NCBI GenBank assembly: GCA_964517495.1
Contig: CAZFER010000019.1
Span: 19,835-83,834 of the forward strand
DNA from: an uncultured bacterium
GTDB lineage: Bacteria > Hinthialibacterota > Hinthialibacteria > Hinthialibacterales > Hinthialibacteraceae
DNA: 64,000 nt
Direction: 5' to 3'
Shown: positions 8,454-60,935 of the stretch, piece by piece
Numbering within the stretch: position 1 is the stretch's first letter
How the letters are laid out: the number at the start of each line of letters is the position of its first letter
Translations under genes and position numbers: made by a program
Notes under the pieces: model-generated
What the model was told of the DNA's origin: nothing
The model's input: only the letters and a program-made list of their open reading frames with translations
Database searches by the model: none

Positions 8454-8465
8454 ATTGGCAAGACA

Positions 8466-32418: not shown

Positions 32419-32450
32419 ATATAATTTCCTTTCCCTTCCCTTCCCTTCCC

Positions 32451-33604: not shown

Positions 33605-34097
33605 TAACATTCAAATTCAATTTGAACGATATTATAGCAGTGGAATCATCGTTGATACCAATATCCTACTGCTTTATTTCATAGGAGAATACGACATAAA
33701 TTTTATTCCACGTTTCAAAAGAACCATTCAATTCACAATTGAGGATTATGAACTGCTGACATTAATTTTAAGACGTTTTAAAAGGATTCTTACTACCCCC
33801 AACATATTGACTGAAGTTTCAAGCCTTGCAAATTCACTAAAAATGAATATCAAACCACATTTTTTCGATTCGTTTTCAAAAAATATATCTATGTTGGATG
33901 AAACATATCTGGATAGTAAATCATTGTCAAAACAAGATGAATTTATAAAATTTGGATTGACAGATATTGGAATTCATCAATTGGCAAACAAAAAATATCT
34001 TGTTCTTACAGATGATTTCACATTAGCGCAATATCTTAAAAAGCATGATGTTCCCGTCGTGAATTTTAACCACATTAGAACATACGCTTGGAAATGA
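33597..34097 (+). CDS. PIN domain nuclease-like protein
   Basis: 166 aa. GIIVDTNILLLYF N-terminal Asp motif. Central TEV glutamate. C-terminal LVLTDDFTLAQYL acidic motif. AT-rich codon usage. Confidence 0.55.
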   Translation: MFNNIQIQFERYYSSGIIVDTNILLLYFIGEYDINFIPRFKRTIQFTIEDYELLTLILRRFKRILTTPNILTEVSSLANSLKMNIKPHFFDSFSKNISMLDETYLDSKSLSKQDEFIKFGLTDIGIHQLANKKYLVLTDDFTLAQYLKKHDVPVVNFNHIRTYAWK

Positions 34098-39979: not shown

Positions 39980-39983
39980 AAAT

Positions 39984-42900
39984 TCACTCCCTCGTCATAA
40001 ATTCGTCTAGATTGATTAAGGTTCTCCCCAGCGCAATCCAGGCAGCGGTCTGTTTCGCATCCGCCTGTTCGGGAACATTTCCACCGCTGATAGAGCGGGC
40101 TTCCTCTGGATTTTTTTCAAAATGCTGCGTCAACTCTGCATAAAGTTGTATCAAACGTGCTCTCTCAATGGTACTCGGCTCACGGCCCAAGCACAGTCGA
40201 AACGCATAATCGATCCGTCGTTCCAAACCACCCTCAACGTTTTCCACAATCCGTTTACCCAACCACTGTGCACAATCAAAGAAAACCGGATCATTCAATA
40301 ATGCAAGCGATTGAAGCGGCGTGTTGGATCGTTCCCGCCGGGTACAGGTAACATTGGCATCCGGCGAGTCAAACGTCATCAACATCGGGTACGGAACCGT
40401 TCGCTGGAAGAAAATATAAAGTCCACGCCGATACCGGTCCGGTGCAGGGCTTTCAGACCAACGCACACTATTGGCATATCCCAAATCAGCGACCCCCTCA
40501 GGCAAGGGCGGCCGAATACTGGGACCACCCAGCTTATCGTATAACAACCCACTAACTGCCAGGCTATTATCACGAATTATTTCAGCCGGCAATCGAAAAC
40601 GGCTCTGACGCGCCAAGTATAAATTTTGTGGATCAATCTCCTGCAGTTTGGAATTGGATTCCGACGATTGCCGGTAAGTGGCCGACATCACAATCAATTT
40701 AATCAGCGCTTTCCGGCTCCAATCCAATTCAATGTATCGATTAGCCAACCAATCCAGCAACAAGGGATGCGAAGGCGGTTTACTTCGTGTCCCAAAATCA
40801 TTGGGCGATTCAACAATCCCACGACCAAACAAATGCTGCCACACCCGATTGGCCGCCACCCGCGCCGTTAATGGATGCTCAGGATCAAGTATCCAGCTCG
40901 CCAGATCCAACCGGTCAACCTCATCACCTTCTGGCTCAAGCGGTGGAAGAAATTCAGGCGTATGCGGTTTAACAACCTTACCCTTGCGCAAAAAATCTCC
41001 ACGAATATGAATATGCGATGTTGGCGGCTCAGGATTCTTCGCCATCGCCATGATATAGGAATCCGGCTTGGCAGGTTGACGTTTAGCGTGTTCATCCACA
41101 CTACGCTTGTACAATGCTAATTCGGGATCAATATGAGAATAAAACGCCGCAAGTTCCTTCTGCTCTTTATCCGTGCGTTTATCTCTCTTTGTTTCTATGA
41201 TGTTTGCAATATGAAAAGGTACCCCATCCGACTTAACCGGCCGTTCTGCATCTGTGGCTAATAACCGAAACCGTTCCAGCGTATGCTCCTTGCCATATTG
41301 CTGTGAAAGTTTGATGGTTAACGTCACATCTCCGTATAAGTCCGAAAATGGTTTCGTTTCAAAAACAGCCACATGGGGACGCTCCGTCTCACCACTGATA
41401 GCCCAGCCAGTTTTTAAATCGCCATCGATAGCATCCTTGATCGGATATTTATCCTGCGCATAATCCACCGTTGGATTATGAAATTCAACCTTCTGCGACG
41501 CAATATCAAACCCATCAAACCTTAACCATGCGCTAAATTCCGACAACACAAAATTACCATGCCCAGCCCGCCCCGGCCCCGAATCTTCATCCACAGGAAG
41601 CACTTCCAGCCGCAGCGCAGTCAAATCACTCAAATTCGTTTTCACCGATAAGATATAAACATCCGCATCAGGTTTTGATCCCTCGGCCTGAATGGAACCA
41701 TCCTCATGCAACTTTAACGCGACACCATTCTCTGTTTGTAATTTAAATGGCTTCAGCACCTGCCATTTCACATTTGAGGGTTTCCACTTGCGTTCCCATT
41801 CACGCTGCCGTTCAGGTAATTCAACTTCTTTGTAGGCTTCCAGCGCTTCCTCGAATTTATCGTGAACCTGATCAAACCGTTCCTTGGCAGCCAGATATCG
41901 CTTCTCTTCACCCGCCAGTGGAACCTTGACGTCTTTTTCCTCCGCTTTATTAAAAAAAGCAAAAAGCCCGTAATATTCCTCCTGGGTAATCGGATCATAT
42001 TTATGGGTATGACATTCCGCACAGCCAACCGTTATACCCATCCAAACCGTACCGGTTGTGTTAACCCGATCCTTGACCGCCTTGATTCGAAACTCCTCCT
42101 GATCCACCCCACCTTCCTTGTTGGTAAGTGTATTTCGATGAAACCCAGTCGCCAGAAGATCCGAATCATCCGCCTCAGGAAGCAAGTCACCTGCCAACTG
42201 CTTGATGGTAAACTCATCATAAGGCATATCCTCATTTATGGCGTTTATCACCCAATCACGATAACGCCAGGCATAGGGCCTTGGAGTGTCCTTTTCATAA
42301 CCATCACTGTCAGCATAACGGGCCAAATCCAACCAATGCCGCCCCCAGCGCTCACCAAAATGAGGCGAAGCCAACAACCGGTCAACCAAATTCTCATATG
42401 CATCCTCGCTGTTATCATTGACAAACACTTCAATCTCATCCGGCGTAGGTGGCAACCCCAACAGATCCAAATGCAAGCGCCGTATCAATGTCTGCTTATC
42501 CGCAGGCTTGGATGGCTTCAATCCTTTCTCTTCCAACTTCGCCAACACAAAAGCATCTATCTCATTCCGAATCCAACTGGCCTGTTTCACCTCAGGAACC
42601 TCTGGATCCTTACGCGGCGAAAACGCCCAATGAACACCACCACTCGTTTTCGTCTCTTTATCCTCAGGTGCCTCTACATCCTCAGTTTCTTCTTCAGTGG
42701 TTTCCTTATTTGTACTCTCCTCTTTAACTTTGGGCTCAGACTCACTCCATTTTGCCCCCTGATCAATCCAGGCTCGCAACAATCCAATCTGCTCATCAGA
42801 CAACGGCTCCCCATCCATCGGCATCGGCGCAATATTCTCCGCCACCCCAGACACCACTTGGATCAACAGACTGTCTGCACTTTTCCCTGGAATTATGGCA

Positions 42901-43160
42901 GGCCCCGAAACACCCCCCTCCTTCAATCGGGATTCCTCATCCAAACGCAAACTGGACATCTGTAACGTTGAACCATGACAGCTTACGCAGTTTTGCGCAA
43001 AGATCGGCTGGATATCCTGCTCAAAATCAACGGTCCGATCAACCACCGGAGGAATCTTTGAACCATCTTGAGCCGCTTGTGCACATACACTCAAGGAATT
43101 CAAAACTAAAACAACGGTAAAGATCGACCCTATCCATTTAAATAATTGCTGACTCTTCAT
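39984..43160 (-). CDS. PSCyt1/DUF1549/DUF1553 domain protein (Planctomycete cytochrome-c-domain family)
   Basis: The ORF track extends to 43319. The internal ATG at 43160 gives the signal peptide MKSQQLFKWIGSIFTVVLVLNSLSVCAQA. CVSCHG heme-binding motif. Lies 4 nt upstream of the DUF1501 gene. Confidence 0.85.
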   Translation of the reverse strand: MKSQQLFKWIGSIFTVVLVLNSLSVCAQAAQDGSKIPPVVDRTVDFEQDIQPIFAQNCVSCHGSTLQMSSLRLDEESRLKEGGVSGPAIIPGKSADSLLIQVVSGVAENIAPMPMDGEPLSDEQIGLLRAWIDQGAKWSESEPKVKEESTNKETTEEETEDVEAPEDKETKTSGGVHWAFSPRKDPEVPEVKQASWIRNEIDAFVLAKLEEKGLKPSKPADKQTLIRRLHLDLLGLPPTPDEIEVFVNDNSEDAYENLVDRLLASPHFGERWGRHWLDLARYADSDGYEKDTPRPYAWRYRDWVINAINEDMPYDEFTIKQLAGDLLPEADDSDLLATGFHRNTLTNKEGGVDQEEFRIKAVKDRVNTTGTVWMGITVGCAECHTHKYDPITQEEYYGLFAFFNKAEEKDVKVPLAGEEKRYLAAKERFDQVHDKFEEALEAYKEVELPERQREWERKWKPSNVKWQVLKPFKLQTENGVALKLHEDGSIQAEGSKPDADVYILSVKTNLSDLTALRLEVLPVDEDSGPGRAGHGNFVLSEFSAWLRFDGFDIASQKVEFHNPTVDYAQDKYPIKDAIDGDLKTGWAISGETERPHVAVFETKPFSDLYGDVTLTIKLSQQYGKEHTLERFRLLATDAERPVKSDGVPFHIANIIETKRDKRTDKEQKELAAFYSHIDPELALYKRSVDEHAKRQPAKPDSYIMAMAKNPEPPTSHIHIRGDFLRKGKVVKPHTPEFLPPLEPEGDEVDRLDLASWILDPEHPLTARVAANRVWQHLFGRGIVESPNDFGTRSKPPSHPLLLDWLANRYIELDWSRKALIKLIVMSATYRQSSESNSKLQEIDPQNLYLARQSRFRLPAEIIRDNSLAVSGLLYDKLGGPSIRPPLPEGVADLGYANSVRWSESPAPDRYRRGLYIFFQRTVPYPMLMTFDSPDANVTCTRRERSNTPLQSLALLNDPVFFDCAQWLGKRIVENVEGGLERRIDYAFRLCLGREPSTIERARLIQLYAELTQHFEKNPEEARSISGGNVPEQADAKQTAAWIALGRTLINLDEFMTRE

Positions 43161-43396
43161 ACTGCTCCCCATAGTAACATTATAAAATTTATCTATTTTG
43201 TCCATATTAAAGCATAATTTTATCGTCCAGTACATGGATAATTCAATAAATTGAAATACATGTGAGTTCATAAAAAACTCTTCTTTTTCATAAATCCAGG
43301 TTACTTCAACAAATACCAAACGTACTAATAGGCGTAGGAAAACCGGTTCTCTTCACCCCACACTGCATAGAGATATGGAGAAACGAATATTCCTCC

Positions 43397-47660: not shown

Positions 47661-48062
47661 CTGATCTTTACCCAATAGTTTAATAAATCCATGCTTTTAC
47701 CCCAACCGGGTTACATAAGATAGCCAGAAATGAAAATAAATAACACCAAAGCCCTGAAAATAAAAACAATCGGTGACCATAAAATCATCCTGACCAGAAA
47801 TACGATTGGGAAAGGATTAATGTTCTCCGGTCTCTTCTCCCCTGCAACCCTTTAGTCCCAAAAGGCGTTTCGCAGCAGTTCAACGAATTCTACCATTGAT
47901 CAACCGTCAATCCACCGATAAAATCAATTTCCGCCTTGAAGATTTAACGAGCAGATTAAACCTAAGGCTGGTTATGTTGAAAAATTCCTTATAAAAAACA
48001 AATGATTTACTTTTACATCATACTGATTATATAATATAATCATTCACGGAGAACTTTCACCA

Positions 48063-48890
48063 ATGAATCAACCAGCAATTATATTTTGCAACTGTGAGTA
48101 TGAAGGATCGCTTCCTGACACTGTCAAACAACCCGTTTTGGATGCATTAACGAAATCATCTATCGATTTTAATTTCGTTTGTGATCTTTGTGGTTTAGCG
48201 GCCCAAAAAGATCAATGGTTCAGCGGGCTTGAACACGATCAAAACTATACGATCATCGCTTGCGCTCCACGCGCGCTTAAATGGTTATTTCACCTGGCCG
48301 GATCAAAAATCCCTGTCAACACGGCTGTCTTAAACATGCATGAGATGAATTCAGATGCTATCCTCCAATCCTTAAACATAGAAAAACCATGCTGCTCAAA
48401 CACACAAAATCATACAGACTGTCAACCCCATGCTGATGATAACTGGATTCCCTGGTTCCCGATCATTGATTACGATCGTTGCACAAACTGTAAACAGTGC
48501 TTGAATTTCTGCCTGTTTAATGTCTATGAACTGGATGATACGAATAAAGTCAGTGTAAGTCATCCAGCCAGTTGTAAAACCAACTGCCCCGCTTGCGCTA
48601 GAGTTTGCCCTGAACAAGCCATCATCTTTCCAAAACACCAATCACCCCATATCAATGGAAGCCTTATCCAACAAGAAGAATCAAAACAAAACGCCAACCT
48701 GAACAATCTTCTTCAGGGTGATTTGCAAGATATTTTGCGAAAACGCAACGCCGGCGCTAAAGGCAATTTCCCTACAATTCAAGATATTACCCTTGCTCAA
48801 GAGGAACGAAAAAAATGCGGTTGCGAATCAGATCCACCTCTTCAAATTGGCCTTATGTCTAACATCAATAAACAAAAGAATCTCAAGTGA
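48063..48890 (+). CDS. 4Fe-4S dicluster (ferredoxin-like) domain protein with an N-terminal Cys-rich domain
   Basis: 275 aa. Cys motifs CTNCKQCLNFC and CKTNCPACARVCP, plus N-terminal CNC...CDLC cysteines. Confidence 0.65.
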   Translation: MNQPAIIFCNCEYEGSLPDTVKQPVLDALTKSSIDFNFVCDLCGLAAQKDQWFSGLEHDQNYTIIACAPRALKWLFHLAGSKIPVNTAVLNMHEMNSDAILQSLNIEKPCCSNTQNHTDCQPHADDNWIPWFPIIDYDRCTNCKQCLNFCLFNVYELDDTNKVSVSHPASCKTNCPACARVCPEQAIIFPKHQSPHINGSLIQQEESKQNANLNNLLQGDLQDILRKRNAGAKGNFPTIQDITLAQEERKKCGCESDPPLQIGLMSNINKQKNLK

Positions 48891-48914
48891 ATAAAGAAGG
48901 GAAAAATATCAAAA

Positions 48915-50435
48915 GTGACTAATTCTTCGTTGAAACCTTCTGTTATACTTGTGGCCGACCGCACACTTTCCAGCAATTACCAAATCCTTTTTGAGGGTAT
49001 TTTTGCCACCATGCAAACCACAAAAGTGCCCGAACTGGCCATGAAACTCCTGGTTTCACCCAAAATGCCCGTAGACCGACAAGGGCGCGCAAAAGCTGTA
49101 CCCCTGGGCCTGCGGCGTTTGGAAGCGGCTCTCATCGAACAAGGCGTTGTGAATGAAAACGATATCGTTTGCACGACTCCCGATGCCTTGGACTCAATTC
49201 TTGGTCCATGGGTAAAAATTGTCGGTGTCAGCTCCAGCGATCCTCTCGGACGGGGAATGAGTAACACCACCACCGTGAAATTTTGGAGTGGAGAACTATA
49301 CACAAAAGTCTGGACCGCCAGAATGATGACCAAACTCAAAAAGGCCAAGGATAAATATCATTTCAAAATGATCGGAGGTGGAGCTGGTGCATGGCAATGG
49401 CAAAACGATCCACAGGAATGCCAAAACCATGGTATCGACTATCTCTTTCTAGGCTACAGTGAATCAAAAGGCGTTCTTTTAATCCGTGATCTGCTCAATG
49501 ACAACGATGCGGCTTTCACAACCGTGGAAAAAGGCAACGCGGCCAGTCACATTCCTAAAATCCGCAACGCTTCTCTCCTTGGTATTATTGAACTTTCTCG
49601 GGGCTGCGGAAAAGGATGCCGCTTCTGCACACTAGCAAAACACCCCATGGTGCATCTCCCCCAAGACACTATCCTATCCGATATTGAAACCAATGTCGCT
49701 CGAGGATTAACCTCCGTTGTAAGCGGTAGCGAAGATTTTTTCCGCTATGGCGCAAACGGCTCCAAAATCAACTTCGATTCACTCCATAAATTATTGACTG
49801 AAATGAAAAATATTAACGGTCTCTCTTTCATGCAGATCGACCACGCCAACATCTCTTCTGTCTTGCAAATGAGTGATCACCAACTCAAAGAAATTCGCAC
49901 CCTTCTCCAATGGAAGAAAAATAGCAATTACCTTTGGATTAACATGGGTGTCGAAAGCGCCAATGGAAATTTAGTCGCTGCCAACAGTGCGGGCAAAATC
50001 CATCCCTTCGATCCATCAAACTGGGAGGATATGGTCAAAGACGCCGTCGCCCGCTTAAGCAGAACAGGTTACTTTCCTGTGCTTAGTATTATCCTTGGTC
50101 TCCCCGGCGAAACAGAAAATGATGTGGACAGAACCATTCAACTTGTTAAAGATATTTCACGCCAATCCGCAGTCGTTTTCCCCATTTTCTATGAACCCGT
50201 GCTCCCCAATGAACCACGCTTCACGCTGGAATGCATGTCTGCCAAACACTTGGAACTTTACACCATGTGTTATGAAATCAATTTCTCACACGTTCCAAAA
50301 ATGTATTGGGACAACCAACGTGCGGGAGGTGTTCCATGGCTCCAACGCGCCTTAGTTCGGCTTTTGGGAAAAACAGAAGTCCGCGCTTGGCGAAAAAAGT
50401 TTAAACAACTGGAATCAACCCTCGCTGTCCAATAA
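48915..50435 (+). CDS. B12-binding domain radical SAM protein (class B rSAM, HpnP/HpnR/HpnJ-like)
   Basis: 506 aa with a GTG start. N-terminal cobalamin-binding-like region (SVILVADRT...KIVGVSSSDPLG). Radical SAM CxxxCxxC motif (IELSRGCGKGCRFCTLAK). Confidence 0.8.
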   Translation: MTNSSLKPSVILVADRTLSSNYQILFEGIFATMQTTKVPELAMKLLVSPKMPVDRQGRAKAVPLGLRRLEAALIEQGVVNENDIVCTTPDALDSILGPWVKIVGVSSSDPLGRGMSNTTTVKFWSGELYTKVWTARMMTKLKKAKDKYHFKMIGGGAGAWQWQNDPQECQNHGIDYLFLGYSESKGVLLIRDLLNDNDAAFTTVEKGNAASHIPKIRNASLLGIIELSRGCGKGCRFCTLAKHPMVHLPQDTILSDIETNVARGLTSVVSGSEDFFRYGANGSKINFDSLHKLLTEMKNINGLSFMQIDHANISSVLQMSDHQLKEIRTLLQWKKNSNYLWINMGVESANGNLVAANSAGKIHPFDPSNWEDMVKDAVARLSRTGYFPVLSIILGLPGETENDVDRTIQLVKDISRQSAVVFPIFYEPVLPNEPRFTLECMSAKHLELYTMCYEINFSHVPKMYWDNQRAGGVPWLQRALVRLLGKTEVRAWRKKFKQLESTLAVQ

Positions 50436-50490
50436 AATAAATTTTCTATTCTATGGCGATTTCTGGTTTAATGGCTTTAAGGAACTATCA

Positions 50491-52176
50491 ATGCAAGAAA
50501 AGTACGAAAATAAATTGGACGCAACCATCACAAATCATTTTCTGCCCATTCAAGAAAATATTTGTCAATCCAAACCGGAGAGAGATAAACTCCGTTCCGT
50601 CATCCAGGAATACGTCAACCACGATAACCTGATCGCTCCTCTTTCCTTATATGAACTATCCTATCATGCCCGTGAAGTGTTAAACATTGCCCATTTAAAC
50701 ACCAAATTCCAAGACTATGCCTCCGTCTTGCTCCATAATGAACTCTGGAGCCAACGAGTCAGCCAAATCCCTTATGACCGTCGACTCTTGCTCCTCCCTC
50801 GTTGCTTGCGGCATAAAGAACACTGTCTTGCACAAGAAGACACATGGGGGCTCATTTGCGCTCATTGTGGAAACTGCCCAATCCACGACCTGCAAACTGA
50901 AGCCCAACAACTGGGTTACATGGTGATGATCGCCGAAGGTTCACCAATCGTTATGGCACTCATCGAGTCGGGGAAAATAGAAACGGTTATTGGCGTTAGC
51001 TGTCTTTCTGTTTTGGAAAAAGTCTTTCCCTACATGGAAGCCGCCGCCGTCCCTGGAATCGCCATTCCTCTACTCCGCGATGGTTGTACGGATACATATG
51101 CTGACATGGATTGGATTTGGGAAGCCATCTACCTCAATAACGATAATCCCATCCCCCGCTTGGATCTAAACGCACTAAAATTGGAAGTACAAGATTGTTT
51201 TGATCCCAATGCGTTAGCACCATACATGGGTTCACCTCATAACCATACCGAAAAAATTGCCCTCCAATGGCTGGCAAAATCCGGTAAACGATGGCGTCCT
51301 TTCCTCGCGGCATGTGTCTATCAATCTCTACGCAACGATCCGTCTGCCCCATTGCCAGACTCAATACGTAAACTTTTAATAGCAATTGAATGCTTCCATA
51401 AAGCATCCCTTATCCATGATGATATCGAAGACAACGATAACCTGCGCTATGGAGAACAAACACTCCATGTTCAATACGGTGTTCCCATCGCTCTCAACAT
51501 TGGCGACATACTCGTTGGTGATGGCTATCGCTTAATTGCAGAATTGGATATCCCCAGTGAGAGAAAGGCAAAAATGCTACACATTGCCGCTATTGGCCAT
51601 CGAACTCTTTGCCAGGGCCAAGGGGCGGAATTATGCTGGCAACAAAGCCGCACACCTCTAACCGTGAATGAAATCCTCGATATTTATAAACAAAAAACCG
51701 CACCGGCCTTTGAAGTCGCTTTAAGGCTGGGAGCCATCTATTCCAATAGGGATGATCACTTGGGCGATTTGCTTCAACAATATAGCACCGCATTAGGGAT
51801 CGCCTATCAGATTAAAGATGATTTCAGTGATAGCGGCCTGGAAGAGGGACCGAATTTGAAGATTCAGAATTCAATGGACATTTCATTACTCATGGCCCTG
51901 ACCTATGAAAAAGCCAATCATGAAGACCAGCAAATATTGAAAGCATTCTGGTATTCAACTTCGGATAAAGACTATCATAACCGGATCAATCAGATCATTC
52001 TAATACATAACATAGTACAGGATATGCAGGCACTTTTCCAACAATACAAAAACCACGCATTCTCCGTTCTATCCGCTATTGATAATCCAAATTTAAAATG
52101 TGTGCTTCACCGGGTTATCGGAAAGATTTTTGGAGATTTAACAAAAATGGGTTGTTGCAATGACAATCAGAAGTGA
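50491..52176 (+). CDS. trans-isoprenyl (polyprenyl) diphosphate synthase fused to an N-terminal Cys-rich domain of unknown function
   Basis: 561 aa. The C-terminal half has both Asp-rich motifs (LIHDDIEDNDNLRYG and YQIKDDFSD). The N-terminal ~260 aa carries PRCLRHKEHC...CAHCGNC cysteines and has no prenyl-synthase similarity. Confidence 0.8.
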   Translation: MQEKYENKLDATITNHFLPIQENICQSKPERDKLRSVIQEYVNHDNLIAPLSLYELSYHAREVLNIAHLNTKFQDYASVLLHNELWSQRVSQIPYDRRLLLLPRCLRHKEHCLAQEDTWGLICAHCGNCPIHDLQTEAQQLGYMVMIAEGSPIVMALIESGKIETVIGVSCLSVLEKVFPYMEAAAVPGIAIPLLRDGCTDTYADMDWIWEAIYLNNDNPIPRLDLNALKLEVQDCFDPNALAPYMGSPHNHTEKIALQWLAKSGKRWRPFLAACVYQSLRNDPSAPLPDSIRKLLIAIECFHKASLIHDDIEDNDNLRYGEQTLHVQYGVPIALNIGDILVGDGYRLIAELDIPSERKAKMLHIAAIGHRTLCQGQGAELCWQQSRTPLTVNEILDIYKQKTAPAFEVALRLGAIYSNRDDHLGDLLQQYSTALGIAYQIKDDFSDSGLEEGPNLKIQNSMDISLLMALTYEKANHEDQQILKAFWYSTSDKDYHNRINQIILIHNIVQDMQALFQQYKNHAFSVLSAIDNPNLKCVLHRVIGKIFGDLTKMGCCNDNQK

Positions 52177-53050
52177 TATGCTCCAAACCGCCAAACTTGG
52201 CGCATCCAGTTTAAATTCAACCATCGCCAGCCAAATATTGTATTACGTAAATAGTATTTCCAATCCCGACGGTGGCTATCGAGGCCGAAGCACAACAAGC
52301 GATTTGTACTACACGGTCTTCGCCATGAAAATTCTTCTGGCTTTTAATGCGGATTTACCCATAGAAAAAATGGAAGCCTATTTAAATTCCTTCGACTCTG
52401 GCCAATCTCTCGATCTTGTTCACCTATCCTGCCTGGCTCGATGCTGGGCAAATCTGCCGGGAAAAAAACCTTCTCCCAAAACAAGTAAATCAATTATAAG
52501 ACGAGTCAATGAATGCCGGACAGGCCCCATGGGATTCGCCAACCAGCCTGATCAGCGGAAATGCTCAATCTACAGCACATTCATGGCTTTGAGTGCCTAT
52601 CAGGATTTGGAGGAAAACATGCCCGATCAAGACGCGATTATCGAATGGATGTTTACCAATCAAGCGGCTGACGAAGGTTTCGCCTTTAAAACCGGCGCCA
52701 AGGGTTTGGTTCCCATCACCGCCGGCGCAATCATCTTGCTCAACTTTTTGAATGTCTCCGTACCTGACGAAAGTATACAATGGCTGATCGATAGACACAA
52801 TCCGGAAGGTGGTTTTCACGCAGCACCACTGCTCCCTTTTCCAGACTTACTATCCACCGCCACTGCACTTCATGCGCTCAAAACAGTAAATTGTTCATTG
52901 GATGATATTCGTGAACCATGCATTAACTTTATCAACAGCGTGTGGCGTGAATACGGCTTTTGTGGGATGACCGTTGATGACACCGTCGATGGCGAATACA
53001 CCTTCTATGGTTTACTCGCTTTAGGCAACATGCTGAATGGAAGAGAATAA
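52160..53050 (+). CDS. prenyltransferase/squalene-oxidase repeat (alpha/alpha-toroid) protein
   Basis: 296 aa. Repeats of the PDGGYRGR / NPEGGFHA type. Overlaps the upstream gene by 17 nt and the downstream gene by 14 nt. Confidence 0.6.
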   Translation: MTIRSDMLQTAKLGASSLNSTIASQILYYVNSISNPDGGYRGRSTTSDLYYTVFAMKILLAFNADLPIEKMEAYLNSFDSGQSLDLVHLSCLARCWANLPGKKPSPKTSKSIIRRVNECRTGPMGFANQPDQRKCSIYSTFMALSAYQDLEENMPDQDAIIEWMFTNQAADEGFAFKTGAKGLVPITAGAIILLNFLNVSVPDESIQWLIDRHNPEGGFHAAPLLPFPDLLSTATALHALKTVNCSLDDIREPCINFINSVWREYGFCGMTVDDTVDGEYTFYGLLALGNMLNGRE

Positions 53051-54968
53051 TGGAATGAACGTTACTCGCTATGATCTTTCAACATCATTGGCCAATGCCC
53101 GAACGTGCCTGCTACAAGAACGCAACCCGCATGGTCATTGGGACGGTGAACTATCCAGTAGTGCTCTTTCAACTGCAACCGCCGTTGTTGCTCTCTCACT
53201 GACGGATCCACAAAAATATCAACAACACATCCATCAAGGTCTTCAATGGTTGAACCAATATCAAAACAAGGACGGTGGGTGGGGAGATAGTATCCTGAGC
53301 CCAAGCAATATAAGCACAACCACGCTTGCCTGGGCGGCATATGCGGTCGCGGAAGATGAATCGATTTACACCAATACAATAAAAAAAGCCGAGCAATGGA
53401 TCAAAAAAAGATCAGGTCAACTGGATATCGAAACACTCGCTGACGCGATTACGGCCTGCTATGGCGAAGACCGTACTTTCTCCGTCCCCATCTTAACTCA
53501 CTGCGTTCTGAGCGGGAAATTCGGTTCTGACCCTAAAACATGGTCTTTCATTAAACCGCTCCCCTTCGAACTCGCTCTCGCGCCCTTCTGCTGCTTGAAA
53601 TGGTTGCGCATCACTGTAGTCAGCTATGCACTTCCCGCCCTTATCGCTATTGGCCAGGTAAGACATCATTACGCACCACCCAAAAATCCCTTCGTGCGCT
53701 TCATTCGCAATATCGCCCGTCCCGGAACGTTAAACCTCCTGCGCACCATTCAACCCGACAGCGGAGGTTTCCTTGAAGCCACTCCCCTGACCAGCTTCGT
53801 GACGATGTCACTGGTTTCATCCGGTCACAAAGATCATCTCGTTGTCAAAAAAGCCACCGAATTTTTAACACGTTCACAAAGAAACGATGGAAGTTGGCCT
53901 ATTGATTCAAATTTAACAACGTGGGGAACAACCCTAAGCGTAAATGCACTCGCTATGAACAAAGAATTCAAACATCTCCTTTCAGAAAAGGAACGTGCCT
54001 CTATCACATCCTGGCTATTGAATCAACAAAACCGTGGAATCCATCCCTACACCCGCGCAGGTGCTGGTGGATGGGCCTGGACGGATTTGCCTGGCGGTGT
54101 CCCCGACGCGGACGATACCGCGGGAGCGCTTATTGCGTTGTATAATCTGGGCATTGAAAAAGAAGCCATAAAAGAAGCCGTTCAACCAGGCATTCAGTGG
54201 TTCTTGCAGTTGCAAAATAACGATGGTGGAATCCCCACGTTCTGCCGGGGCTGGGGGAAACTCCCTTTCGACCGTAGTGCCCCGGATCTAACCGCTCATT
54301 TCATTTCAGCATTGTCCATCTGGTCTCAAACAAACCAGTTGCCAGAACCGCTCAATCTACAAATCAAAAAATCGATCAGGAAAAGCCTGCATTTTCTAAA
54401 AACCTCGCAACAAGACAATGGGTCCTGGATTCCTCTGTGGTTTGGTAATCCCCATGCCCCCAACGAAGAAAACCCTGTTTATGGTACATCTTTGGTTACT
54501 ACATCGCTCGTTAATCTAACCAATATTCCAGACGTCACCCTGATTGACATGGTATCAAACGGTCACAAATACATCCTGGAAACGCAAAACACCGATCAAG
54601 GCTGGGGAGGTTCTTGCAATACCCCCTCGAGCATTGAAGAAACCGCCTTGGCCATTTGTGCTCTATCTCAAGTCCTGGCATGGTCCAAAACGCATGAAAT
54701 GATTTCAAAAAGATTCAATGAACAACAGATCATAAATTCAATTAAACAAGGCACTGCGTGGCTTCTTGAAAAAACACACCTCGGTACAGAATTTCCAGCT
54801 TCACCAATAGGCCTCTATTTTGCCCGCTTATGGTATTTCGAAAAATTATACCCCATCATCTTTACAACCAGAGCGCTTGAACTAGTGAATCGTATGATTC
54901 CTCTTCTTTTTGAACATAGCCTTTTCCAACATCAAGATAAACAAAATGTCAAAGGAACCACACGGTAA
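53037..54968 (+). CDS. squalene-hopene cyclase-type class II terpene cyclase
   Basis: 643 aa. Multiple QW motifs (QNKDGGWGDS, RNDGSWPID, QNNDGGIPT, QQDNGSWIPLWFGN, QNTDQGWGGS). Catalytic DxDDTA motif (GVPDADDTAGAL). Confidence 0.8.
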   Translation: MEENNGMNVTRYDLSTSLANARTCLLQERNPHGHWDGELSSSALSTATAVVALSLTDPQKYQQHIHQGLQWLNQYQNKDGGWGDSILSPSNISTTTLAWAAYAVAEDESIYTNTIKKAEQWIKKRSGQLDIETLADAITACYGEDRTFSVPILTHCVLSGKFGSDPKTWSFIKPLPFELALAPFCCLKWLRITVVSYALPALIAIGQVRHHYAPPKNPFVRFIRNIARPGTLNLLRTIQPDSGGFLEATPLTSFVTMSLVSSGHKDHLVVKKATEFLTRSQRNDGSWPIDSNLTTWGTTLSVNALAMNKEFKHLLSEKERASITSWLLNQQNRGIHPYTRAGAGGWAWTDLPGGVPDADDTAGALIALYNLGIEKEAIKEAVQPGIQWFLQLQNNDGGIPTFCRGWGKLPFDRSAPDLTAHFISALSIWSQTNQLPEPLNLQIKKSIRKSLHFLKTSQQDNGSWIPLWFGNPHAPNEENPVYGTSLVTTSLVNLTNIPDVTLIDMVSNGHKYILETQNTDQGWGGSCNTPSSIEETALAICALSQVLAWSKTHEMISKRFNEQQIINSIKQGTAWLLEKTHLGTEFPASPIGLYFARLWYFEKLYPIIFTTRALELVNRMIPLLFEHSLFQHQDKQNVKGTTR

Positions 54969-55320: not shown

Positions 55321-57711
55321 TCAGGAATTCAAAATCATATCCGCGCGTTGTTTGTACATTAGTCCATAAAACATCTGCAAATAACGCTGGGTTTCTTTCC
55401 GTTGAAGGTTGGTGGCGTGTTTCCAGAAGCCATAGATTCGCGAGAGCGACATGAGCCGTTCGGCGTAGAGTTTCCAGTTATAACGGCTCTTGATTCGCTG
55501 AATGGCACCATTGGAGATGGTATCCCATTCCGACATATCACGTTGGCAACGCTCGATAAAATCGGCCATCTTGTTTGCCGATTCCAACCCGTGGTTTGGA
55601 TCGATGTGATACCCTGAATACCCCTCAAGGATAATCTCCTGTGGACCGCCATAACTGGTGGCAAAGGTCGGCAGGCCGGAACTCATGGCTTCGATCACCG
55701 TCAGCCCAAACGCCTCAAACAAAGCCGGTTGAACAAAGGCTCCCTTTAAATCGGCAATATAACGATATAACTCACCTACAAAGTTCTTTTGCAATTGCGC
55801 GCCAATCCAACGGATTTTATCATCCAAGTGGTAATGAGTCATCAAGTCATGCATGCGGTGAATCTGTTCCTGTTCCTCATAATCCGACGAGCGGTTCGCA
55901 TCAGTGTACCCCCCCACAATCACCAAATTCGCCAGCTCTTGCAAGCGCTCGCATTGGCCATACCATTCCACCAGACCGGTTAAATTCTTGATGCGGTCCA
56001 TTCGAGATAAGCTAAAGAGGATGGTTTTTTCACCTTTTTGAATCAATCCACGACAATCAGGATAATCTTCCGAAAAAAGCATGCGATGAATCTCTTCATG
56101 TAAATTACTCAAGCGGTGGTCATTTTCCCAATAGGGAAAAAACACATCAGGATCAGCGCCCGGTGAGACGATATTGAATTTTGGATCAAACACATTGATC
56201 CCGTTTTTTACCCGATACAATCCCGGCATGGTAAAGGTGGAATAACTTTCGTACTGCCCCACCACATCCGAGTTGCCAACAATCTCTTGATACGTACTGG
56301 TTATAATAAAATCTGCGGTATTCATCGAAATAAGATCCGCGGTAAATTGGCAGGAAAAGTGATACTGATCTTCCAGATTCATCCAATAAAGATCAGAGTA
56401 CAGATACTTGGTCTTTTCCAACGCATGGGCGATATTACATTGTGATACATTCAACCGTTCAGCAAGCAAAGTTGCCACTAAATTCCCGTCAGAATAATTT
56501 CCAATAATCAAGTCTGGCCGTGTTCCCAATTGCGCGAGTATTTCACGTTCCGCGTCAATTGAAAATTGCTCCAAATAGGGCCATATACGAAAACGTGATA
56601 TCCACTGGGGAATGATATCGCCGTTTTCATTCCGAAAAGGAATTCGGACAATCGTAGCATTTTGGGTTCCGGATATGGGTTCCAGTGGTTCATCACACGA
56701 TGTTCCATCCGATTCCGGAATAAGCCGGGTCATCACGATAATTTTGGATTCCATGTCGATGCCTTGTTCCCACAAGCGCTCATTCATCTCATTTTCAAGC
56801 GCTTTGACCTGATCCAATATATAAATCACCTGCCCCCCGGTATCTGGCTTGCCCAGTACATTGGTTTGCCCAAAATAACCATGAGGCGATAGTATCACCA
56901 CGTTAAAGATCATGGGAATTCGACTCAGAAATTCGCTTAAACGATTATGGTCCGGGGCTTCCCAAATGTCAGACAATAAATAAAGCGTGTCAAGCATTCG
57001 TCTTACAGTTCGTCCCCACCCCAATTCAAATCCCATCTCCTGCATGGTATGGGCGACCATATCCCACTCGGTATCTCCAGAAAATTGGGATAAATAGTCT
57101 TGTGCCCGGGTCAAGGCCTGCTGCAACTGAGAAATATTTTGGATACGATCGTTCAGCATCAGGGGTTGCCCCTGACATTCATGAACCCGTAAAAAATTGA
57201 ACAACAACTTCCCATCCTTCGCAGGATCGCTGAATAAGTTATTGCTCAAATGGCGGTTTAAAAATTCCACCCCGCGCCCAATGGATCGCGCTTCCTTTAA
57301 TTTGGGAAACTCCCGGTTGAATGGTTGGAGGTCTATTTCAAGGACCCAATCATCCGCACCAGCCTGAGGATTGACCAATCGCTCCTTGATATGCAGAAAT
57401 TCTGAAGCACTCATTTCATCGCAATGCATACTTTCCATATGAAAACGAATATAAATCCACACCCCAATCCGGGGACGATAGGCAAAACTGATCCACGGCG
57501 ATTGTATAACCGCTTCCTGTGAATGATGCATCAAATGGCCAAACGCAGTTGATTTAATCATGCGGTTTGAATCGTCTTCACAAAATTGCTTAAATTCGTC
57601 ATAAATATCTGACCGAAGAAGAAAGGGCCGTTCCAACCCAGTCAACTGTCGCAGAAAAACATAGATTACATTGCGATGTTCATTGATAGCGTTCTGTATT
57701 TCCTGAATCAT
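55321..57711 (-). CDS. sucrose synthase (GT4)
   Basis: 796 aa. Sucrose synthase N-domain blocks (WVLEIDLQPFNREFP, SIGRGVEFLNRHLS). C-terminal GT-B glycosyltransferase. Confidence 0.85.
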   Translation of the reverse strand: MIQEIQNAINEHRNVIYVFLRQLTGLERPFLLRSDIYDEFKQFCEDDSNRMIKSTAFGHLMHHSQEAVIQSPWISFAYRPRIGVWIYIRFHMESMHCDEMSASEFLHIKERLVNPQAGADDWVLEIDLQPFNREFPKLKEARSIGRGVEFLNRHLSNNLFSDPAKDGKLLFNFLRVHECQGQPLMLNDRIQNISQLQQALTRAQDYLSQFSGDTEWDMVAHTMQEMGFELGWGRTVRRMLDTLYLLSDIWEAPDHNRLSEFLSRIPMIFNVVILSPHGYFGQTNVLGKPDTGGQVIYILDQVKALENEMNERLWEQGIDMESKIIVMTRLIPESDGTSCDEPLEPISGTQNATIVRIPFRNENGDIIPQWISRFRIWPYLEQFSIDAEREILAQLGTRPDLIIGNYSDGNLVATLLAERLNVSQCNIAHALEKTKYLYSDLYWMNLEDQYHFSCQFTADLISMNTADFIITSTYQEIVGNSDVVGQYESYSTFTMPGLYRVKNGINVFDPKFNIVSPGADPDVFFPYWENDHRLSNLHEEIHRMLFSEDYPDCRGLIQKGEKTILFSLSRMDRIKNLTGLVEWYGQCERLQELANLVIVGGYTDANRSSDYEEQEQIHRMHDLMTHYHLDDKIRWIGAQLQKNFVGELYRYIADLKGAFVQPALFEAFGLTVIEAMSSGLPTFATSYGGPQEIILEGYSGYHIDPNHGLESANKMADFIERCQRDMSEWDTISNGAIQRIKSRYNWKLYAERLMSLSRIYGFWKHATNLQRKETQRYLQMFYGLMYKQRADMILNS

Positions 57712-59888
57712 ACATCCTCCATTTTGGGGTTCTTGACGTTGCCTAAGAAGTCAAAGTATTCGATTCCTTCCAAAATACCAGCTGCAGAGTGGGCTTCAGC
57801 GAAATAAACGGTGGGGTTCTTTTTTAAGTTTTTCAACTCCTTGCTGTAATTCCCCACCACAATGGATAACGAGTGCCCTTTCAGCATATCTTCATCGTTT
57901 CCTGATCCCCCGGCAGTCAATATCCGTTCCATGGGAATACCCCAGCGGCTGGCCAAATACCAAATAGCCAAACCTTTGGAAGCGCGCAAGGGTATAAAAT
58001 CCAGATATTGCTGCAGCGAATAAATCACTTTAACCACAAACTGATTTTCTCTCATCATGCGTATTATTTCACGCCGTTTGGGGGCTATGCTCGGATCGAT
58101 ATAATAACTGATTTTATGATCACTCTGATTTTCCGGCGGTTGTAATTCTATCCCAGGCAGAGTGGAAACAAAATCTTTGAGTTGCTCTGGTTTCCATTTA
58201 TAGTTTAAATGTTTTTCCCATCCCCGATCCAGTTTTAAGTCGTCACCATAATTGATTTCTGTACCGACAGATGTAATCAATAAATCAGGGCGTGGAACAT
58301 TGATTTCTTCAAGAATACCCGTAGCACTTTCCAGGGTGCGGCCGGTCGCGATCCCAAAGCCAACATTATCCTTGCTTTCCTCAATCCTTTTAACCAGCTC
58401 GTCCAAAGCCTCCTGGTCACCCAACAATGTGTTGTCGATGTCAGTAATTAACAACCGGTCCGCATTTAACAACCGCTTTCCTGTGGAAACCCAGAATGGT
58501 GAAACCAATTGTTCCTGCGTATGTTTTTTGATTTGTTCCAAATAGGTTTCGGTATGACTCTCCCACGAATAATGCTTCTTGACACCCGCGAGGCCACTTT
58601 GAGCAAATTGCTGCCATTTTCGCGGATCGGTAATAATCGAATGGATAGCTTCCGCAATCTCTTGGGGGTTGAGTGGATCAATGAGAATTCCATTCTGACA
58701 ATGCCTCACAATATCACGCGGCCCTCCATCGTTGGTGGCTACAATGGGAACCCCACTGGCTGCTGCTTCAATAAGGGTCAGGCCAAAAGGTTCCGTCAAG
58801 GCGGGATTAACAAACACTCCCCCTGTTTTGGCGCACATACAGTATAAATTCGGAACATCCTCGGATTGATGGGTTTTTGGATAGGCCACCCGGCCATATA
58901 AATCATACTTATCAATTAGATAAAATATATTCCTGATAACGCCTCGCGCTCCTGTGTCCAGGTGTTTTAAATCATCCCGGTTTCCTGCCACGATAACAAG
59001 ATTGGCCTTCTCCTTCAAATCCGGATGTTGCGCATAGGCCTGAATCAGTGAGGCGATGTTTTTGCGTTCATCCGCTCTGGAGATGGCGAGAACCATCGGT
59101 TTTTCCGGTTCTCTCAAGAATTTTTTCAACCGTTCAAAATAAGAGTAATATTCCAGCGGCTGCTTTGATGGACTGAATCGGGATAAATCCGTCCCTGGCG
59201 GAATGACATCCATCTTTATCGGTTGATAGCGTTGATAGACTTTATACTGCTCTTCCACTTCCTGGTTGGTGCTGGCAACCACCATGGAGGCGGATTCCAA
59301 GGCCAGTTCTTCTGCCTCTATACGTTCTGTAATGTGATATTGCTCTTCGATGCGTTTTTCAGACATCCCATGGTCAATAAGGCGTTTCCGCTTTGTCCGC
59401 CCCAATGAATGGCCGGTGAATACCAAGGGAATCCCCAATAGATGAGAAAGTTTGGAACCCACATACCCGGCATCCGCATAATGGGCATGAATGATGTCGG
59501 GCATACGCTTGATTTTACGAAAATACTTTAATATCTCATTGGCGAATTCATCCAAATACGGCCAAAGCACTTCTTTACGCAAATAGCGTTTGGGGCCACA
59601 GGGTTTTCGAATAATTTGAGCACCCGATCCTAAATCTTCCACCTCTTCTTCATAATCAGAATCGACTTTTTTATCGAAGATTTGCCGAGTGATCAAGTCA
59701 ACTTTATCCACGTCTTCTTGTTGAGATAGCGTTTTTGCCAACTCAACAACATACAACACTTGCCCGCCGGTATCTGCATCACGGCCTAATTCAATTTTTT
59801 TACCCCGAACCAACCCATGTACACTGATCATCGCAATATACAACGTGTCATTTGACAGAGTTGCATAATTGTTCATATTCGTTTTCAT
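57708..59888 (-). CDS. sucrose-phosphate synthase with a C-terminal sucrose-phosphatase-like HAD domain
   Basis: 726 aa. GT4 SPS blocks (ISVHGLVRGKKIELGRDADTGGQVLYVVELA). C-terminal LLITDIDNTLLGD HAD motif. 4 nt ATGA overlap with the sucrose synthase gene. Confidence 0.85.
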   Translation of the reverse strand: MKTNMNNYATLSNDTLYIAMISVHGLVRGKKIELGRDADTGGQVLYVVELAKTLSQQEDVDKVDLITRQIFDKKVDSDYEEEVEDLGSGAQIIRKPCGPKRYLRKEVLWPYLDEFANEILKYFRKIKRMPDIIHAHYADAGYVGSKLSHLLGIPLVFTGHSLGRTKRKRLIDHGMSEKRIEEQYHITERIEAEELALESASMVVASTNQEVEEQYKVYQRYQPIKMDVIPPGTDLSRFSPSKQPLEYYSYFERLKKFLREPEKPMVLAISRADERKNIASLIQAYAQHPDLKEKANLVIVAGNRDDLKHLDTGARGVIRNIFYLIDKYDLYGRVAYPKTHQSEDVPNLYCMCAKTGGVFVNPALTEPFGLTLIEAAASGVPIVATNDGGPRDIVRHCQNGILIDPLNPQEIAEAIHSIITDPRKWQQFAQSGLAGVKKHYSWESHTETYLEQIKKHTQEQLVSPFWVSTGKRLLNADRLLITDIDNTLLGDQEALDELVKRIEESKDNVGFGIATGRTLESATGILEEINVPRPDLLITSVGTEINYGDDLKLDRGWEKHLNYKWKPEQLKDFVSTLPGIELQPPENQSDHKISYYIDPSIAPKRREIIRMMRENQFVVKVIYSLQQYLDFIPLRASKGLAIWYLASRWGIPMERILTAGGSGNDEDMLKGHSLSIVVGNYSKELKNLKKNPTVYFAEAHSAAGILEGIEYFDFLGNVKNPKMEDV

Positions 59889-60295
59889 TCGAAATTATTC
59901 CTTTCGAAAGTCATATTAATCAACAACTTAGAACCAGTAGTATTCACTCTTTGGGAAAGAGAATACAATTCCATCTCATAAAAAGTATAATGTTACAAAT
60001 CCGTACCTCAATAGTTTGAACTTCAATCAATGAAAACCAATTTTTTGTGTTTAAATCAGTTAGGTGATTAAGTAATATGTCGAAAATGTTTCAATTTACG
60101 TCATGTGGTCGATTATGTTCCTTGAAAGATTGGAATTATATCCAAATAAAATTAATAAACTTTTCTTCAACTTTCAACTTGTAATGTTTTGTAATGTATT
60201 CTATAATGAATGCTAAAATATGTTTCAATATATATATTAATAAAATAGGGTCTCGTTGAGGGATATAATTCATCTTGAAGACAGAGGATATTAAG

Positions 60296-60865
60296 ATGCC
60301 AGTTCAAAAACAAACTCAACGAAAACATCTGCAATGTGTGGTTTGTGGCCAGGGATTCATGTCCACCTTTGATGAAAAGTTGGGTGTTTATCCGGTTTAT
60401 CATTCCAAATCCAAGACAGAGTTTTTGTCATGTGAATCACAATTTTTCGAAATGTTGCTCAAATTGTACAAATGTTTACATTCTTCTGAAACCAGCAAAC
60501 AGATGAATGAGCTAATGAATGATGCCGATTGGGGCATTATTCTGCTCAAACGTGAATTCCTCATGTGGTGTTTGACCTGTGGATATTTAACATTGGACAA
60601 TTTGAAGCGAATTATTGTTCCTCCCGCGATTGACGATTTTACCAAAGATTTGCTGAGTACTCATAAGTTAAACGATCCGAACTATATACCTCAAGCGATG
60701 GATTATCTGAAATCGGCTTTTCACCATTTGAAGGATGAATTGCACCCCACCAATGTGAATGAATTTGATAATTTGAACCCCCAAAAAGAACTCGCTCCAG
60801 AAGCCCACAAATCAGTAAGAATGCACACGGTTGACCTGATTGGGATTTCTCAAAGGAACTCATAA
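60296..60865 (+). CDS. hypothetical Cys-containing protein
   Basis: The internal ATG follows a GAGGAT ribosome-binding site (the ORF track starts at 60275). Lies adjacent to a ~30% GC intergenic region at 59890-60290. No family recognised. Confidence 0.45.
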   Translation: MPVQKQTQRKHLQCVVCGQGFMSTFDEKLGVYPVYHSKSKTEFLSCESQFFEMLLKLYKCLHSSETSKQMNELMNDADWGIILLKREFLMWCLTCGYLTLDNLKRIIVPPAIDDFTKDLLSTHKLNDPNYIPQAMDYLKSAFHHLKDELHPTNVNEFDNLNPQKELAPEAHKSVRMHTVDLIGISQRNS

Positions 60866-60935
60866 TATTAAGGATAGGTTCATTCTCATCATTGAAAATA
60901 AACAGATGGGTTTTTATTGTTTATCAAAATGGTCA

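Follow-up and report, generated by a model that had tools for sequence, protein, structure and literature searches.

What a class II terpene cyclase acts upon when no squalene synthase gene lies near it is the question raised by a 64,000-nucleotide stretch of DNA from an uncultured bacterium of the Hinthialibacterota (GenBank assembly GCA_964517495.1, contig CAZFER010000019.1, positions 19,835 to 83,834), referred to here as the window. The plus strand of the window carries, at positions 48063-54968, five genes that code for a ferredoxin-like protein, a radical S-adenosylmethionine (SAM) enzyme, a fusion of a DUF116 domain with a trans-prenyl diphosphate synthase, a single-domain alpha/alpha-toroid protein and a two-domain class II terpene cyclase related to squalene-hopene cyclases (SHCs). 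The explanation that we favour, with a probability of about 60%, is a pathway that depends neither on O2 nor on squalene synthase and that combines a dedicated prenyl diphosphate, its tailoring by iron-sulphur (Fe-S) and radical chemistry, and class II cyclisation.

The cyclase is specified by the fifth gene (positions 53037-54968, plus strand; 643 amino acids) and consists of the Pfam domains SQHop_cyclase_N and SQHop_cyclase_C. The deduced protein contains a DADDTA motif at residues 357-362 and four QW-type motifs at residues 27, 74, 272 and 458. In a profile derived from 24 homologues, the family sequence VPDADDTAG aligned onto D374-A379 of SHC, and the invariant residues D359, H421, D417 and Y482 corresponded to D376, H451, D447 and Y495 of SHC, respectively. 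The same profile identified the SHC of Alicyclobacillus as the best solved relative, with 121 bits versus 64 bits for the human oxidosqualene cyclase (OSC). Since the acid residues are conserved, the machinery for protonating an alkene with a strong acid appears to be intact, and the protein is predicted to be a functional, alkene-protonating class II cyclase.

The cyclase scored below every curated cut-off for SHC, OSC and tetrahymanol synthase. It reached 91.4 bits with the SHC equivalog model TIGR01507 (cut-off 431.1), 125 bits with the squalene/oxidosqualene cyclase subfamily model TIGR01787 (cut-off 323), 105 bits with the OSC model (cut-off 851) and 57 bits with the tetrahymanol synthase model (cut-off 500). 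Judged by these scores the enzyme is not an orthodox SHC, and the large deficit against TIGR01507 makes a substrate other than squalene the likelier reading, in agreement with the initial annotation of the locus, which had likened it to systems that cyclise a non-squalene polyprenoid. Santana-Molina et al. 2020 (PMC7306690) defined a group of 'SHC-like' proteins, the planctomycetal members of which retain the catalytic residues and are found in a genomic context that suggests a precursor other than squalene. A study published in Mol Biol Evol in 2025 (PMC12414744) described the 'SHC-like' proteins as a clade of unknown function that occurs in the PVC (Planctomycetes, Verrucomicrobia, Chlamydiae) group, the FCB (Fibrobacteres, Chlorobi, Bacteroidetes) group, Spirochaetota and Acidobacteriota and that is sister to cyclases of epoxidised head-to-tail polyprenyl chains (Lon15, AtoE, Bra4 and PlaT2). 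The retention of catalytic residues despite divergence from both SHC and OSC is a trait of this clade and was found in the cyclase of the window. Moreover, its relatives with 45-52% identity belong to Planctomycetota (including Gemmataceae and Gimesia), Verrucomicrobiota, Kiritimatiellae, Lentisphaerae, Acidobacteriota and Bacteroidota (Marinifilum). This range of taxa matches the published distribution of the clade and, together with the scores and the gene context, suggests that the cyclase is one of its members.

The features of the cyclase also bear on the simplest alternative, an orthodox hopanoid locus, in which a divergent SHC would convert squalene made elsewhere and the radical SAM enzyme would perform tailoring of the HpnP, HpnR, HpnH or HpnJ type. 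The SQHop_cyclase domains, the DxDDTA and QW motifs and the closeness to the SHC structure rather than to OSC are what such a locus would provide, but the cyclase remains far under the SHC equivalog cut-off, and the conserved partner of the cyclase gene is the prenyl synthase fusion and not a set of squalene synthesis genes. A Pfam scan of 35 other open reading frames (ORFs) of at least 150 amino acids in the 64-kb window detected no SQS_PSY domain and no HpnC, HpnD, HpnE or other hpn-type protein, which bears out the earlier statement that squalene synthase genes are missing from the window. Additionally, the radical SAM enzyme of the window (type A) matched none of the Hpn radical SAM models, and the enzyme that takes its place in other loci (type B) reached only 34-49 bits with the HpnH model, against a cut-off of 225. 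We consequently regard an orthodox hopanoid locus as highly unlikely.

The third gene (positions 50491-52176, plus strand; 561 amino acids) provides the prenyl diphosphate synthase, preceded in the same polypeptide by a cysteine-rich domain. The latter, termed a 'Cys domain' in the initial annotation, is DUF116 (PF01976, arCOG02078), which occupies residues 63-213 and was recognised with 113 bits against a cut-off of 25; the polyprenyl_synt domain follows at residues 254-487. Seven cysteines of DUF116 (C105, C112, C123, C126, C129, C171 and C199) were invariant in the homologue alignment, three of them forming the CxxCxxC motif C123-x2-C126-x2-C129. An AlphaFold2 model of the domain (predicted local distance difference test score, pLDDT, of 77) displayed a generic Rossmann or flavodoxin-like core, for which structure comparison revealed no specific relative. 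An electron-transfer role of DUF116 has been predicted by Makarova et al. (PMC5898192), who also noted its fusion to polyprenyl synthetase.

In the synthase domain, the first and second aspartate-rich motifs are DDIED (residues 310-314) and DDFSD (residues 443-447). Both motifs and the sequence GKRWRP, which represents the GKRxRP motif for binding of isopentenyl diphosphate, were invariant in 26 homologues. The motifs and conserved residues of the synthase and of the cyclase alike are those expected of catalytically intact enzymes, as had been claimed before. The designation of the synthase as a long-chain enzyme is not supported. The best family models were GGPP_syn, IdsA and an encapsulin cargo synthase with about 105 bits each, followed by FPPsyn with 98 bits, and the models for octaprenyl (52 bits) and solanesyl (63 bits) diphosphate synthases as well as those for heptaprenyl and hexaprenyl enzymes scored below these types; GerC3_HepT gave 81 bits (cut-off 457). 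The top match in the PDB was the geranylgeranyl diphosphate (GGPP) synthase of Pyrococcus horikoshii with an E-value of 8.5e-29. Ahead of the first aspartate-rich motif, the synthase has the small residues A305 and S306 at positions -5 and -4 and an invariant phenylalanine at -8. This set of residues is compatible with C20 or somewhat longer chains. The domain therefore resembles short- to medium-chain trans-prenyl diphosphate synthases of the farnesyl diphosphate (FPP) or GGPP type, and we infer a product of C20-C25 from these sequence features. Most homologues carry a conserved C-terminal sequence G-[CW]-C behind the synthase domain, which is represented by MGCCNDNQK in the window (positions 52132-52176) and might ligate a cluster or be a site of modification; the homologues of the Gimesia type and a few others do not have it.

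The gene context of the cyclase was compared by mapping the proteins of the window and the recurrent neighbours onto 80 genome loci that encode cyclases of 45-52% identity, and counts were restricted to the 49 loci in which the cyclase gene had no less than 6 kb of upstream and 3 kb of downstream sequence. These loci span Planctomycetota, Verrucomicrobiota, Acidobacteriota, Hydrogenedentota, Kiritimatiellae and Bacteroidota. The closest relative of the window, with a 74% identical cyclase, has all five genes in identical order, and the DUF116::synthase fusion was present in 38 of the 49 distant loci. This comparison, which the initial annotation had proposed as a check, thus demonstrated a conserved neighbourhood, and the recurrence of the gene order in the close relative and in the distant loci clearly indicates that the five-gene arrangement is far beyond chance. 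Within the group of 38 fusion loci, the toroid gene was found in 34 and the ferredoxin gene in 31; a type A radical SAM gene occurred in ten and a type B gene in 22, with both types together in none and neither in six. Since only the recurring neighbour families were annotated in the related loci, it is among these families that no hpn or squalene synthase genes were recognised. In the GC-rich locus L030, radical SAM, DUF116 and synthase domains seemed to be joined in one protein, but the long ORF concerned proved to be spurious and to lie in the wrong frame.

Accordingly, the cluster exists in two versions. Version A is found in the window and in Sedimentisphaerales, Anaerohalosphaeraceae and other Phycisphaerae, and comprises a ferredoxin with a fused four-cysteine domain, the type A radical SAM enzyme, the fusion protein, the toroid and the cyclase. 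Version B is distributed over Planctomycetia, Tepidisphaeraceae, Verrucomicrobiota, Acidobacteriota, Hydrogenedentota, Kiritimatiellae and Marinifilum, and is characterised by a separate gene for the four-cysteine domain and by the type B radical SAM enzyme. It often includes in addition a GTPase of the CobW family, a GcvH-like protein in which the lysine of lipoyl-type proteins is preserved and a class V aminotransferase resembling cysteine desulfurases, which were observed upstream and downstream of the core genes in loci L015, L019, L025, L039, L044, L057, L058, L061, L062 and others. In Gimesia-type loci the GcvH-like gene lies immediately ahead of the ferredoxin gene; the version of the window lacks it. 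Sedimentisphaerales, Anaerohalosphaeraceae and other Phycisphaerae are anaerobes. The window holds the Phycisphaerae-type version of the cluster, and from the taxon labels we infer that this is the version of anaerobes; the lineages adding the CobW, GcvH-like and aminotransferase genes would be aerobic, and the added proteins might assist in the maturation of oxygen-labile Fe-S enzymes or in supplying them with reductant.

Several loci deviate from this pattern by further neighbours. In two Phycisphaerae, a gene for an MFS_3 transporter is inserted between the fusion and toroid genes (L013, positions 7672-9078; L017, positions 7663-9093), which hints at export of the product or of a precursor. 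Verrucomicrobial genes for cyclases of this family that have no other cluster genes nearby are often preceded by a gene for a DCC1-like thiol-disulfide oxidoreductase (L016, L026, L042, L053 and L082).

The radical SAM enzyme of the window (gene 2, positions 48915-50435, plus strand; 506 amino acids, with a GTG start codon) contains a Pfam Radical_SAM domain at residues 225-411 (E-value 1.6e-11) with the cluster motif CGKGCRFC at residues 231-238, in which C231, C235 and C238 are invariant. The other conserved cysteines are the invariant C452 and the nearly invariant C86, so that type A is devoid of a cysteine set for auxiliary clusters. The N-terminal domain (residues 1-215) is highly conserved and Rossmann-like. 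The initial annotation had described the protein as a B12-dependent radical SAM enzyme on the basis of a CxxxCxxC motif and a B12 domain. The motif is present; the B12 domain was not confirmed, as Pfam gave no match to PF02310 in type A and TIGR04013, a family combining B12-binding and radical SAM domains, reached 81 bits (cut-off 251) over residues 130-300. Matches were further obtained to a PhpK-family model (E-value 3.5e-4) and to the MiaB/RimO family (49 bits), and the nearest cores in the PDB were TM_1862, RimO and MiaB, the latter two not being class B methylases.

The type B enzyme that fills the same slot in other loci is unrelated to type A, comprises about 400 amino acids, is SPASM/NirJ-like and has five further conserved cysteines. 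An identity with HpnH, the enzyme of hopanoid side-chain clusters, was considered for type B and rejected on the bit scores mentioned above, its best matches being of the SPASM/NirJ-like kind. The mutual exclusion of types A and B in one slot suggests that both fill the same role in the pathway, and their interchange argues against a role that is specific to B12-dependent methylation. Together with the lack of any match of type A to HpnP, HpnR or other Hpn radical SAM models and the nearest cores of the RimO/MiaB kind, this leaves the former assignment as a class B C-methylase in analogy to HpnP, HpnR or HpnJ unsupported.

The ferredoxin-like protein (gene 1, positions 48063-48890, plus strand; 275 amino acids) was recognised by the Fer4 families. 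Its dicluster domain of the 2x[4Fe-4S] type at residues 131-190 contains eight cysteines and is followed by a conserved C-terminal tail. The N-terminal domain (residues 1-105) has four conserved cysteines, C9, C11, C43 and C67, and is homologous to the protein of 130 amino acids that stands alone where the cluster has a different make-up. The domain belongs to no Pfam family and has no natural relative in the PDB, where only designed proteins were matched; a relationship to DUF116 was rejected by hhalign with a probability of 0.07. A gene for an NAD(P)H-type Fe-S flavoprotein with Fer2_4, Fer4_20 and Pyr_redox_2 domains is located two genes upstream of the ferredoxin gene in three loci from two phyla (L004, positions 887-2449; L068, positions 650-2194; L075, positions 213-1745), and its product might deliver electrons to the ferredoxin.

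The recurrence of Fe-S and ferredoxin components in the cluster, with a ferredoxin in 31 of the 38 fusion loci, could also be explained by a squalene-like route, in which the DUF116::synthase, the ferredoxin and the radical SAM enzyme would reductively couple two prenyl diphosphates tail-to-tail without an enzyme of the squalene synthase family and the resulting C30-C40 hydrocarbon would be cyclised. This would account for a short-chain-looking synthase beside a two-domain cyclase of the architecture typical of triterpenoids (PMC12414744). Santana-Molina et al. pointed to hopanoid producers that lack an enzyme of the squalene synthase family and called for undiscovered precursor routes (PMC7306690), and a cluster of Bipolaricaulota, according to a preprint (bioRxiv 10.1101/2025.11.21.689855), joins a DUF116 gene with those for SHC, HpnH, IspH and a polyprenyl synthetase. 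The chemistry, however, is without precedent, and the nearest characterised cyclases use head-to-tail chains (PMC12414744). Moreover, Planctomycetia with the cluster also possess HpnCDE and a true SHC (PMC7306690), so that the cluster is not needed there to supply squalene. Altogether, we consider tail-to-tail coupling unlikely.

The toroid protein (gene 4, positions 52160-53050, plus strand; 296 amino acids) matched the Pfam family Prenyltrans, and its AlphaFold2 model had a pLDDT of 95.5. The closest folds detected by Foldseek were the monodomain class II cyclases 8PAJ/8PAK and MstE and the beta subunits of Rab geranylgeranyltransferase (RabGGTase) and protein farnesyltransferase, which were about equally close (E-values of about 1e-6, template modelling scores of about 0.6). 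The former description of this protein as a prenyltransferase-beta-like toroid therefore holds for the alpha/alpha fold and not for the zinc site of protein prenyltransferases, which has been lost. Partial repeat alignments with manual matching of the register placed the zinc ligands D238, C240 and H290 of RabGGTase beta at D229, L231 and Y280 of the toroid, the cysteine thus being replaced by Leu231 and the histidine by Tyr280, and no invariant cysteine was found among 41 homologues. Invariant residues of the cavity are R43, D48, Y50, Y51, D85, H88, R94, D229, D277, E279 and Y280, and a DDxxD-like motif is formed by D273-D274-T-V-D277. R43, H88, R94, several of the tyrosines and aspartates and the DDxxD-like motif lie at the N-termini of helices that, by analogy, would form the inner ring of the toroid, and in the model these residues seem suited to the binding of a prenyl diphosphate. 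Inspection by eye, which did not extend to an alignment with MstE, recognised no canonical DxDD or MstE-type motif.

These properties of the toroid lead to another alternative, the transfer of a cyclised prenyl group in meroterpenoid synthesis or in the lipidation of a protein or peptide. According to this idea, a cyclic di- or sesterterpenyl diphosphate made by the cyclase would be transferred to an acceptor by the toroid and the acceptor would be modified by the radical SAM enzyme. The fold shared with the beta subunit of protein prenyltransferases, the invariant arginine, histidine and tyrosine residues and the diphosphate-suited DDxxD-like motif are compatible with it, as are the similarity of the SPASM-like type B enzyme to peptide maturase families, which are its nearest relatives, and the GcvH-like protein with its retained lipoyl-type lysine in type B versions. 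Nevertheless, the cysteine and histidine ligands of the zinc site are absent, and the recurring cluster families include neither an alpha subunit nor a UbiA-type transferase nor an aromatic-precursor gene. No convincing conserved ORF for a precursor peptide was seen in the flanks within the window, and the window version lacks the GcvH-like gene, which makes prenyl transfer improbable in our view.

The five genes constitute a single operon, as deduced from their tight spacing, the pattern of Shine-Dalgarno-like sequences, a promoter-like site and the conserved gene order. ORF calling exactly reproduced the earlier description of five ORFs on one strand, with gaps of 24 and 55 nucleotides and overlaps of 17 and 14 nucleotides, and all reported motifs, i.e. 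the aspartate-rich motifs of the synthase, CxxxCxxC, DADDTA and QW, were found in the translations. The profile searches suggested along with that description yielded matches to polyprenyl_synt, Radical_SAM, SQHop_cyclase and Prenyltrans. Shine-Dalgarno-like sequences precede only the three non-overlapping genes; their absence ahead of the two overlapping genes fits translational coupling. A sigma-70-like promoter candidate, TTTACA-17-TATAAT (positions 48012..48040, plus strand), ends 23 nucleotides before the ATG of gene 1. It agrees with the consensus at 11 of 12 positions and was the best site in a consensus scan of the 8-kb region, in which the total number of promoter-like sites was not above the shuffled expectation, so that the site is regarded as a candidate only.

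In the pathway that we propose, the synthase domain, as judged from its motifs, would supply the pathway with its own pool of prenyl diphosphate. DUF116, the two-cluster ferredoxin with its four-cysteine domain and the radical SAM enzyme might then alter the prenyl chain by reductive or radical chemistry, with the ferredoxin as driving force, and in this way make or tailor the substrate of the cyclase; this is the weakest step of the scheme. The zinc-less toroid, translationally coupled to both of its neighbours, could bind a diphosphate-bearing or hydrophobic intermediate and pass it to the cyclase, or alternatively remove or transfer the diphosphate. Finally, the conserved catalytic residues suggest that the aspartate of the DxDD motif would protonate a terminal double bond and that folding of the chain would yield a polycyclic terpenoid. 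We consider a membrane lipid other than a hopanoid or a sterol the most likely product. No O2-dependent domain type was present among the domains identified in the five proteins. A more specific version, in which the ferredoxin-driven DUF116 domain of the short-chain synthase and the radical SAM enzyme make the cyclase substrate anaerobically, either by reductive coupling of two prenyl diphosphates or by activating the terminal isoprene as a counterpart of the O2-dependent epoxidases of the sister clade, is rather doubtful.

A number of points weigh against the proposed pathway. The roles proposed for the toroid, the radical SAM enzyme, DUF116 and the ferredoxin are deduced from their co-occurrence. 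The assignment to the 'SHC-like' clade is based on hidden Markov model scores, taxonomy and context, and the negative result for squalene synthase covers the window and not the rest of the source genome. The small residues at -5 and -4 occur in long-chain prenyl synthases too, and chain length cannot be read from the sequence. Furthermore, in 11 of the 49 loci, mostly of Verrucomicrobiota, the cyclase gene is not flanked by any other cluster gene, which means that the cyclase may act without these partners or that the partner genes are located elsewhere in those genomes.

Beyond the operon, the window contains several other gene groups. The gene directly downstream is convergent and encodes a sucrose synthase on the minus strand (796 amino acids; SUS_N, EPBD and GT-B domains), which adjoins a gene for a fused sucrose-phosphate synthase/sucrose-6-phosphate phosphatase (726 amino acids); the pair (positions 55321-59888) is complete for the synthesis and cleavage of sucrose and convergent with the terpenoid operon. 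At positions 38495-43319 on the minus strand, a gene for a PSCyt1/PSCyt2/PSD1 protein of 1111 amino acids adjoins one for a DUF1501 protein of 494 amino acids, a pair that is typical of Planctomycetota and Verrucomicrobiota and to which no function is assigned. Sulfatases were likewise detected by the Pfam scan, and together with this pair they mark the source as a bacterium of the PVC group. The region at positions 32001-34000, between a 368-amino-acid ORF lacking Pfam domains and an ORF of 166 amino acids that was left out of the scan, is among the parts of the window with the lowest GC content (0.374). The GC skew of the plus strand ranges from -0.08 to -0.28 over the first 60 kb regardless of gene orientation and changes its sign near 60 kb (positions 59500-61000), where the GC content drops to 0.34. 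DnaA boxes were sought near this position, and no cluster of them was found; the switch could be related to replication or mark the boundary of an island.

The substrate of the 'SHC-like' cyclases, which were named an open question by the evolutionary studies of 2020 and 2025, would decide between scenarios for the origin of alkene- and epoxide-using cyclases, and their products could represent terpane biomarkers that are still unassigned. If the more specific anaerobic version outlined above were correct, PVC bacteria and Acidobacteriota would produce an unrecognised family of cyclic lipids with potential as biomarkers. The cluster is very common in abundant phyla of soil, sediment and aquatic habitats, where loci like that of the window number in the thousands; each of three protein searches gave roughly 5,000-8,000 matches, totals that include relatives outside the cluster. 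Cultured carriers are found in Gimesia and Gemmata and include Planctomycetales bacterium ZRK34, Chthoniobacter flavus Ellin428 and Marinifilum caeruleilacunae. The comparison defines a core for experimental work that consists of the ferredoxin, a radical SAM enzyme of either of the two interchangeable types, the DUF116::synthase, the zinc-less toroid and the cyclase, and the version of the window, being compact, self-contained and free of accessory maturation genes, is a practical candidate for heterologous expression.

With respect to known systems, the closest resemblance is to the 'SHC-like' clade itself, with which the cyclase shares divergence from SHC and OSC, retained catalytic residues, a length of about 600-650 amino acids, relatives in the PVC group, Bacteroidota and Acidobacteriota and a gene context pointing away from squalene; none of its features contradicts membership. 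The initial annotation had regarded the layout as undescribed. Text searches for DUF116 or for the combination of cyclase, radical SAM and polyprenyl genes found no paper that characterises the cluster, but the clade, the peculiar setting of its genes and the fusion of DUF116 to a synthase have already been noted in print (PMC7306690, PMC12414744, PMC5898192), and the idea of a non-squalene substrate was put forward in 2020 (PMC7306690). The main texts of the papers on the clade do not mention the neighbourhood of ferredoxin, radical SAM, DUF116::synthase and toroid genes or its two versions; no earlier description was found of this conserved set of ferredoxin, radical SAM and toroid or of its occurrence in two versions.

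The Alicyclobacillus SHC (PDB 1GSZ) has in common with the cyclase the two-domain fold, the DxDDTA and QW motifs and the equivalents of D376, H451, D447 and Y495. The 'SHC-like' clade differs from SHC in that its stem carries an unusual density of substitutions on the SHC-type dimer surface (PMC12414744), and the operon differs from SHC/hpn clusters in having a prenyl synthase fusion as partner of the cyclase and no squalene synthase or hpn gene as neighbour. A radical SAM gene beside a terpene cyclase gene is reminiscent of HpnP, HpnR, HpnH and HpnJ, whereas the enzyme of the operon shows no significant match to the respective models, has no auxiliary cysteine set or detected B12-binding domain, and occupies a slot that is interchangeable with a SPASM-like enzyme. 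The toroid shares its alpha/alpha fold with the beta subunits of protein prenyltransferases and with MstE and 8PAJ/8PAK, and differs from the former by the loss of the zinc ligands and by the lack of an alpha subunit in the operon. In the C35 sporulenol route of Bacillus (HepS/HepT, YtpB and SqhC), an SHC homologue likewise cyclises a polyprenoid other than squalene, although the operon encodes no YtpB-type enzyme, its synthase is not of the heptaprenyl type and its cyclase belongs to a different clade. The pathways of Lon15, AtoE, Bra4 and PlaT2 provide the nearest parallel for the overall logic, as the class II cyclase there receives its head-to-tail chain from a dedicated prenyl diphosphate synthase. 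These pathways employ an O2-dependent epoxidase, which the operon lacks, whereas the cyclase of the operon keeps the strong-acid pair of the DxDD motif and histidine and is accompanied by Fe-S and radical SAM enzymes as accessory proteins.

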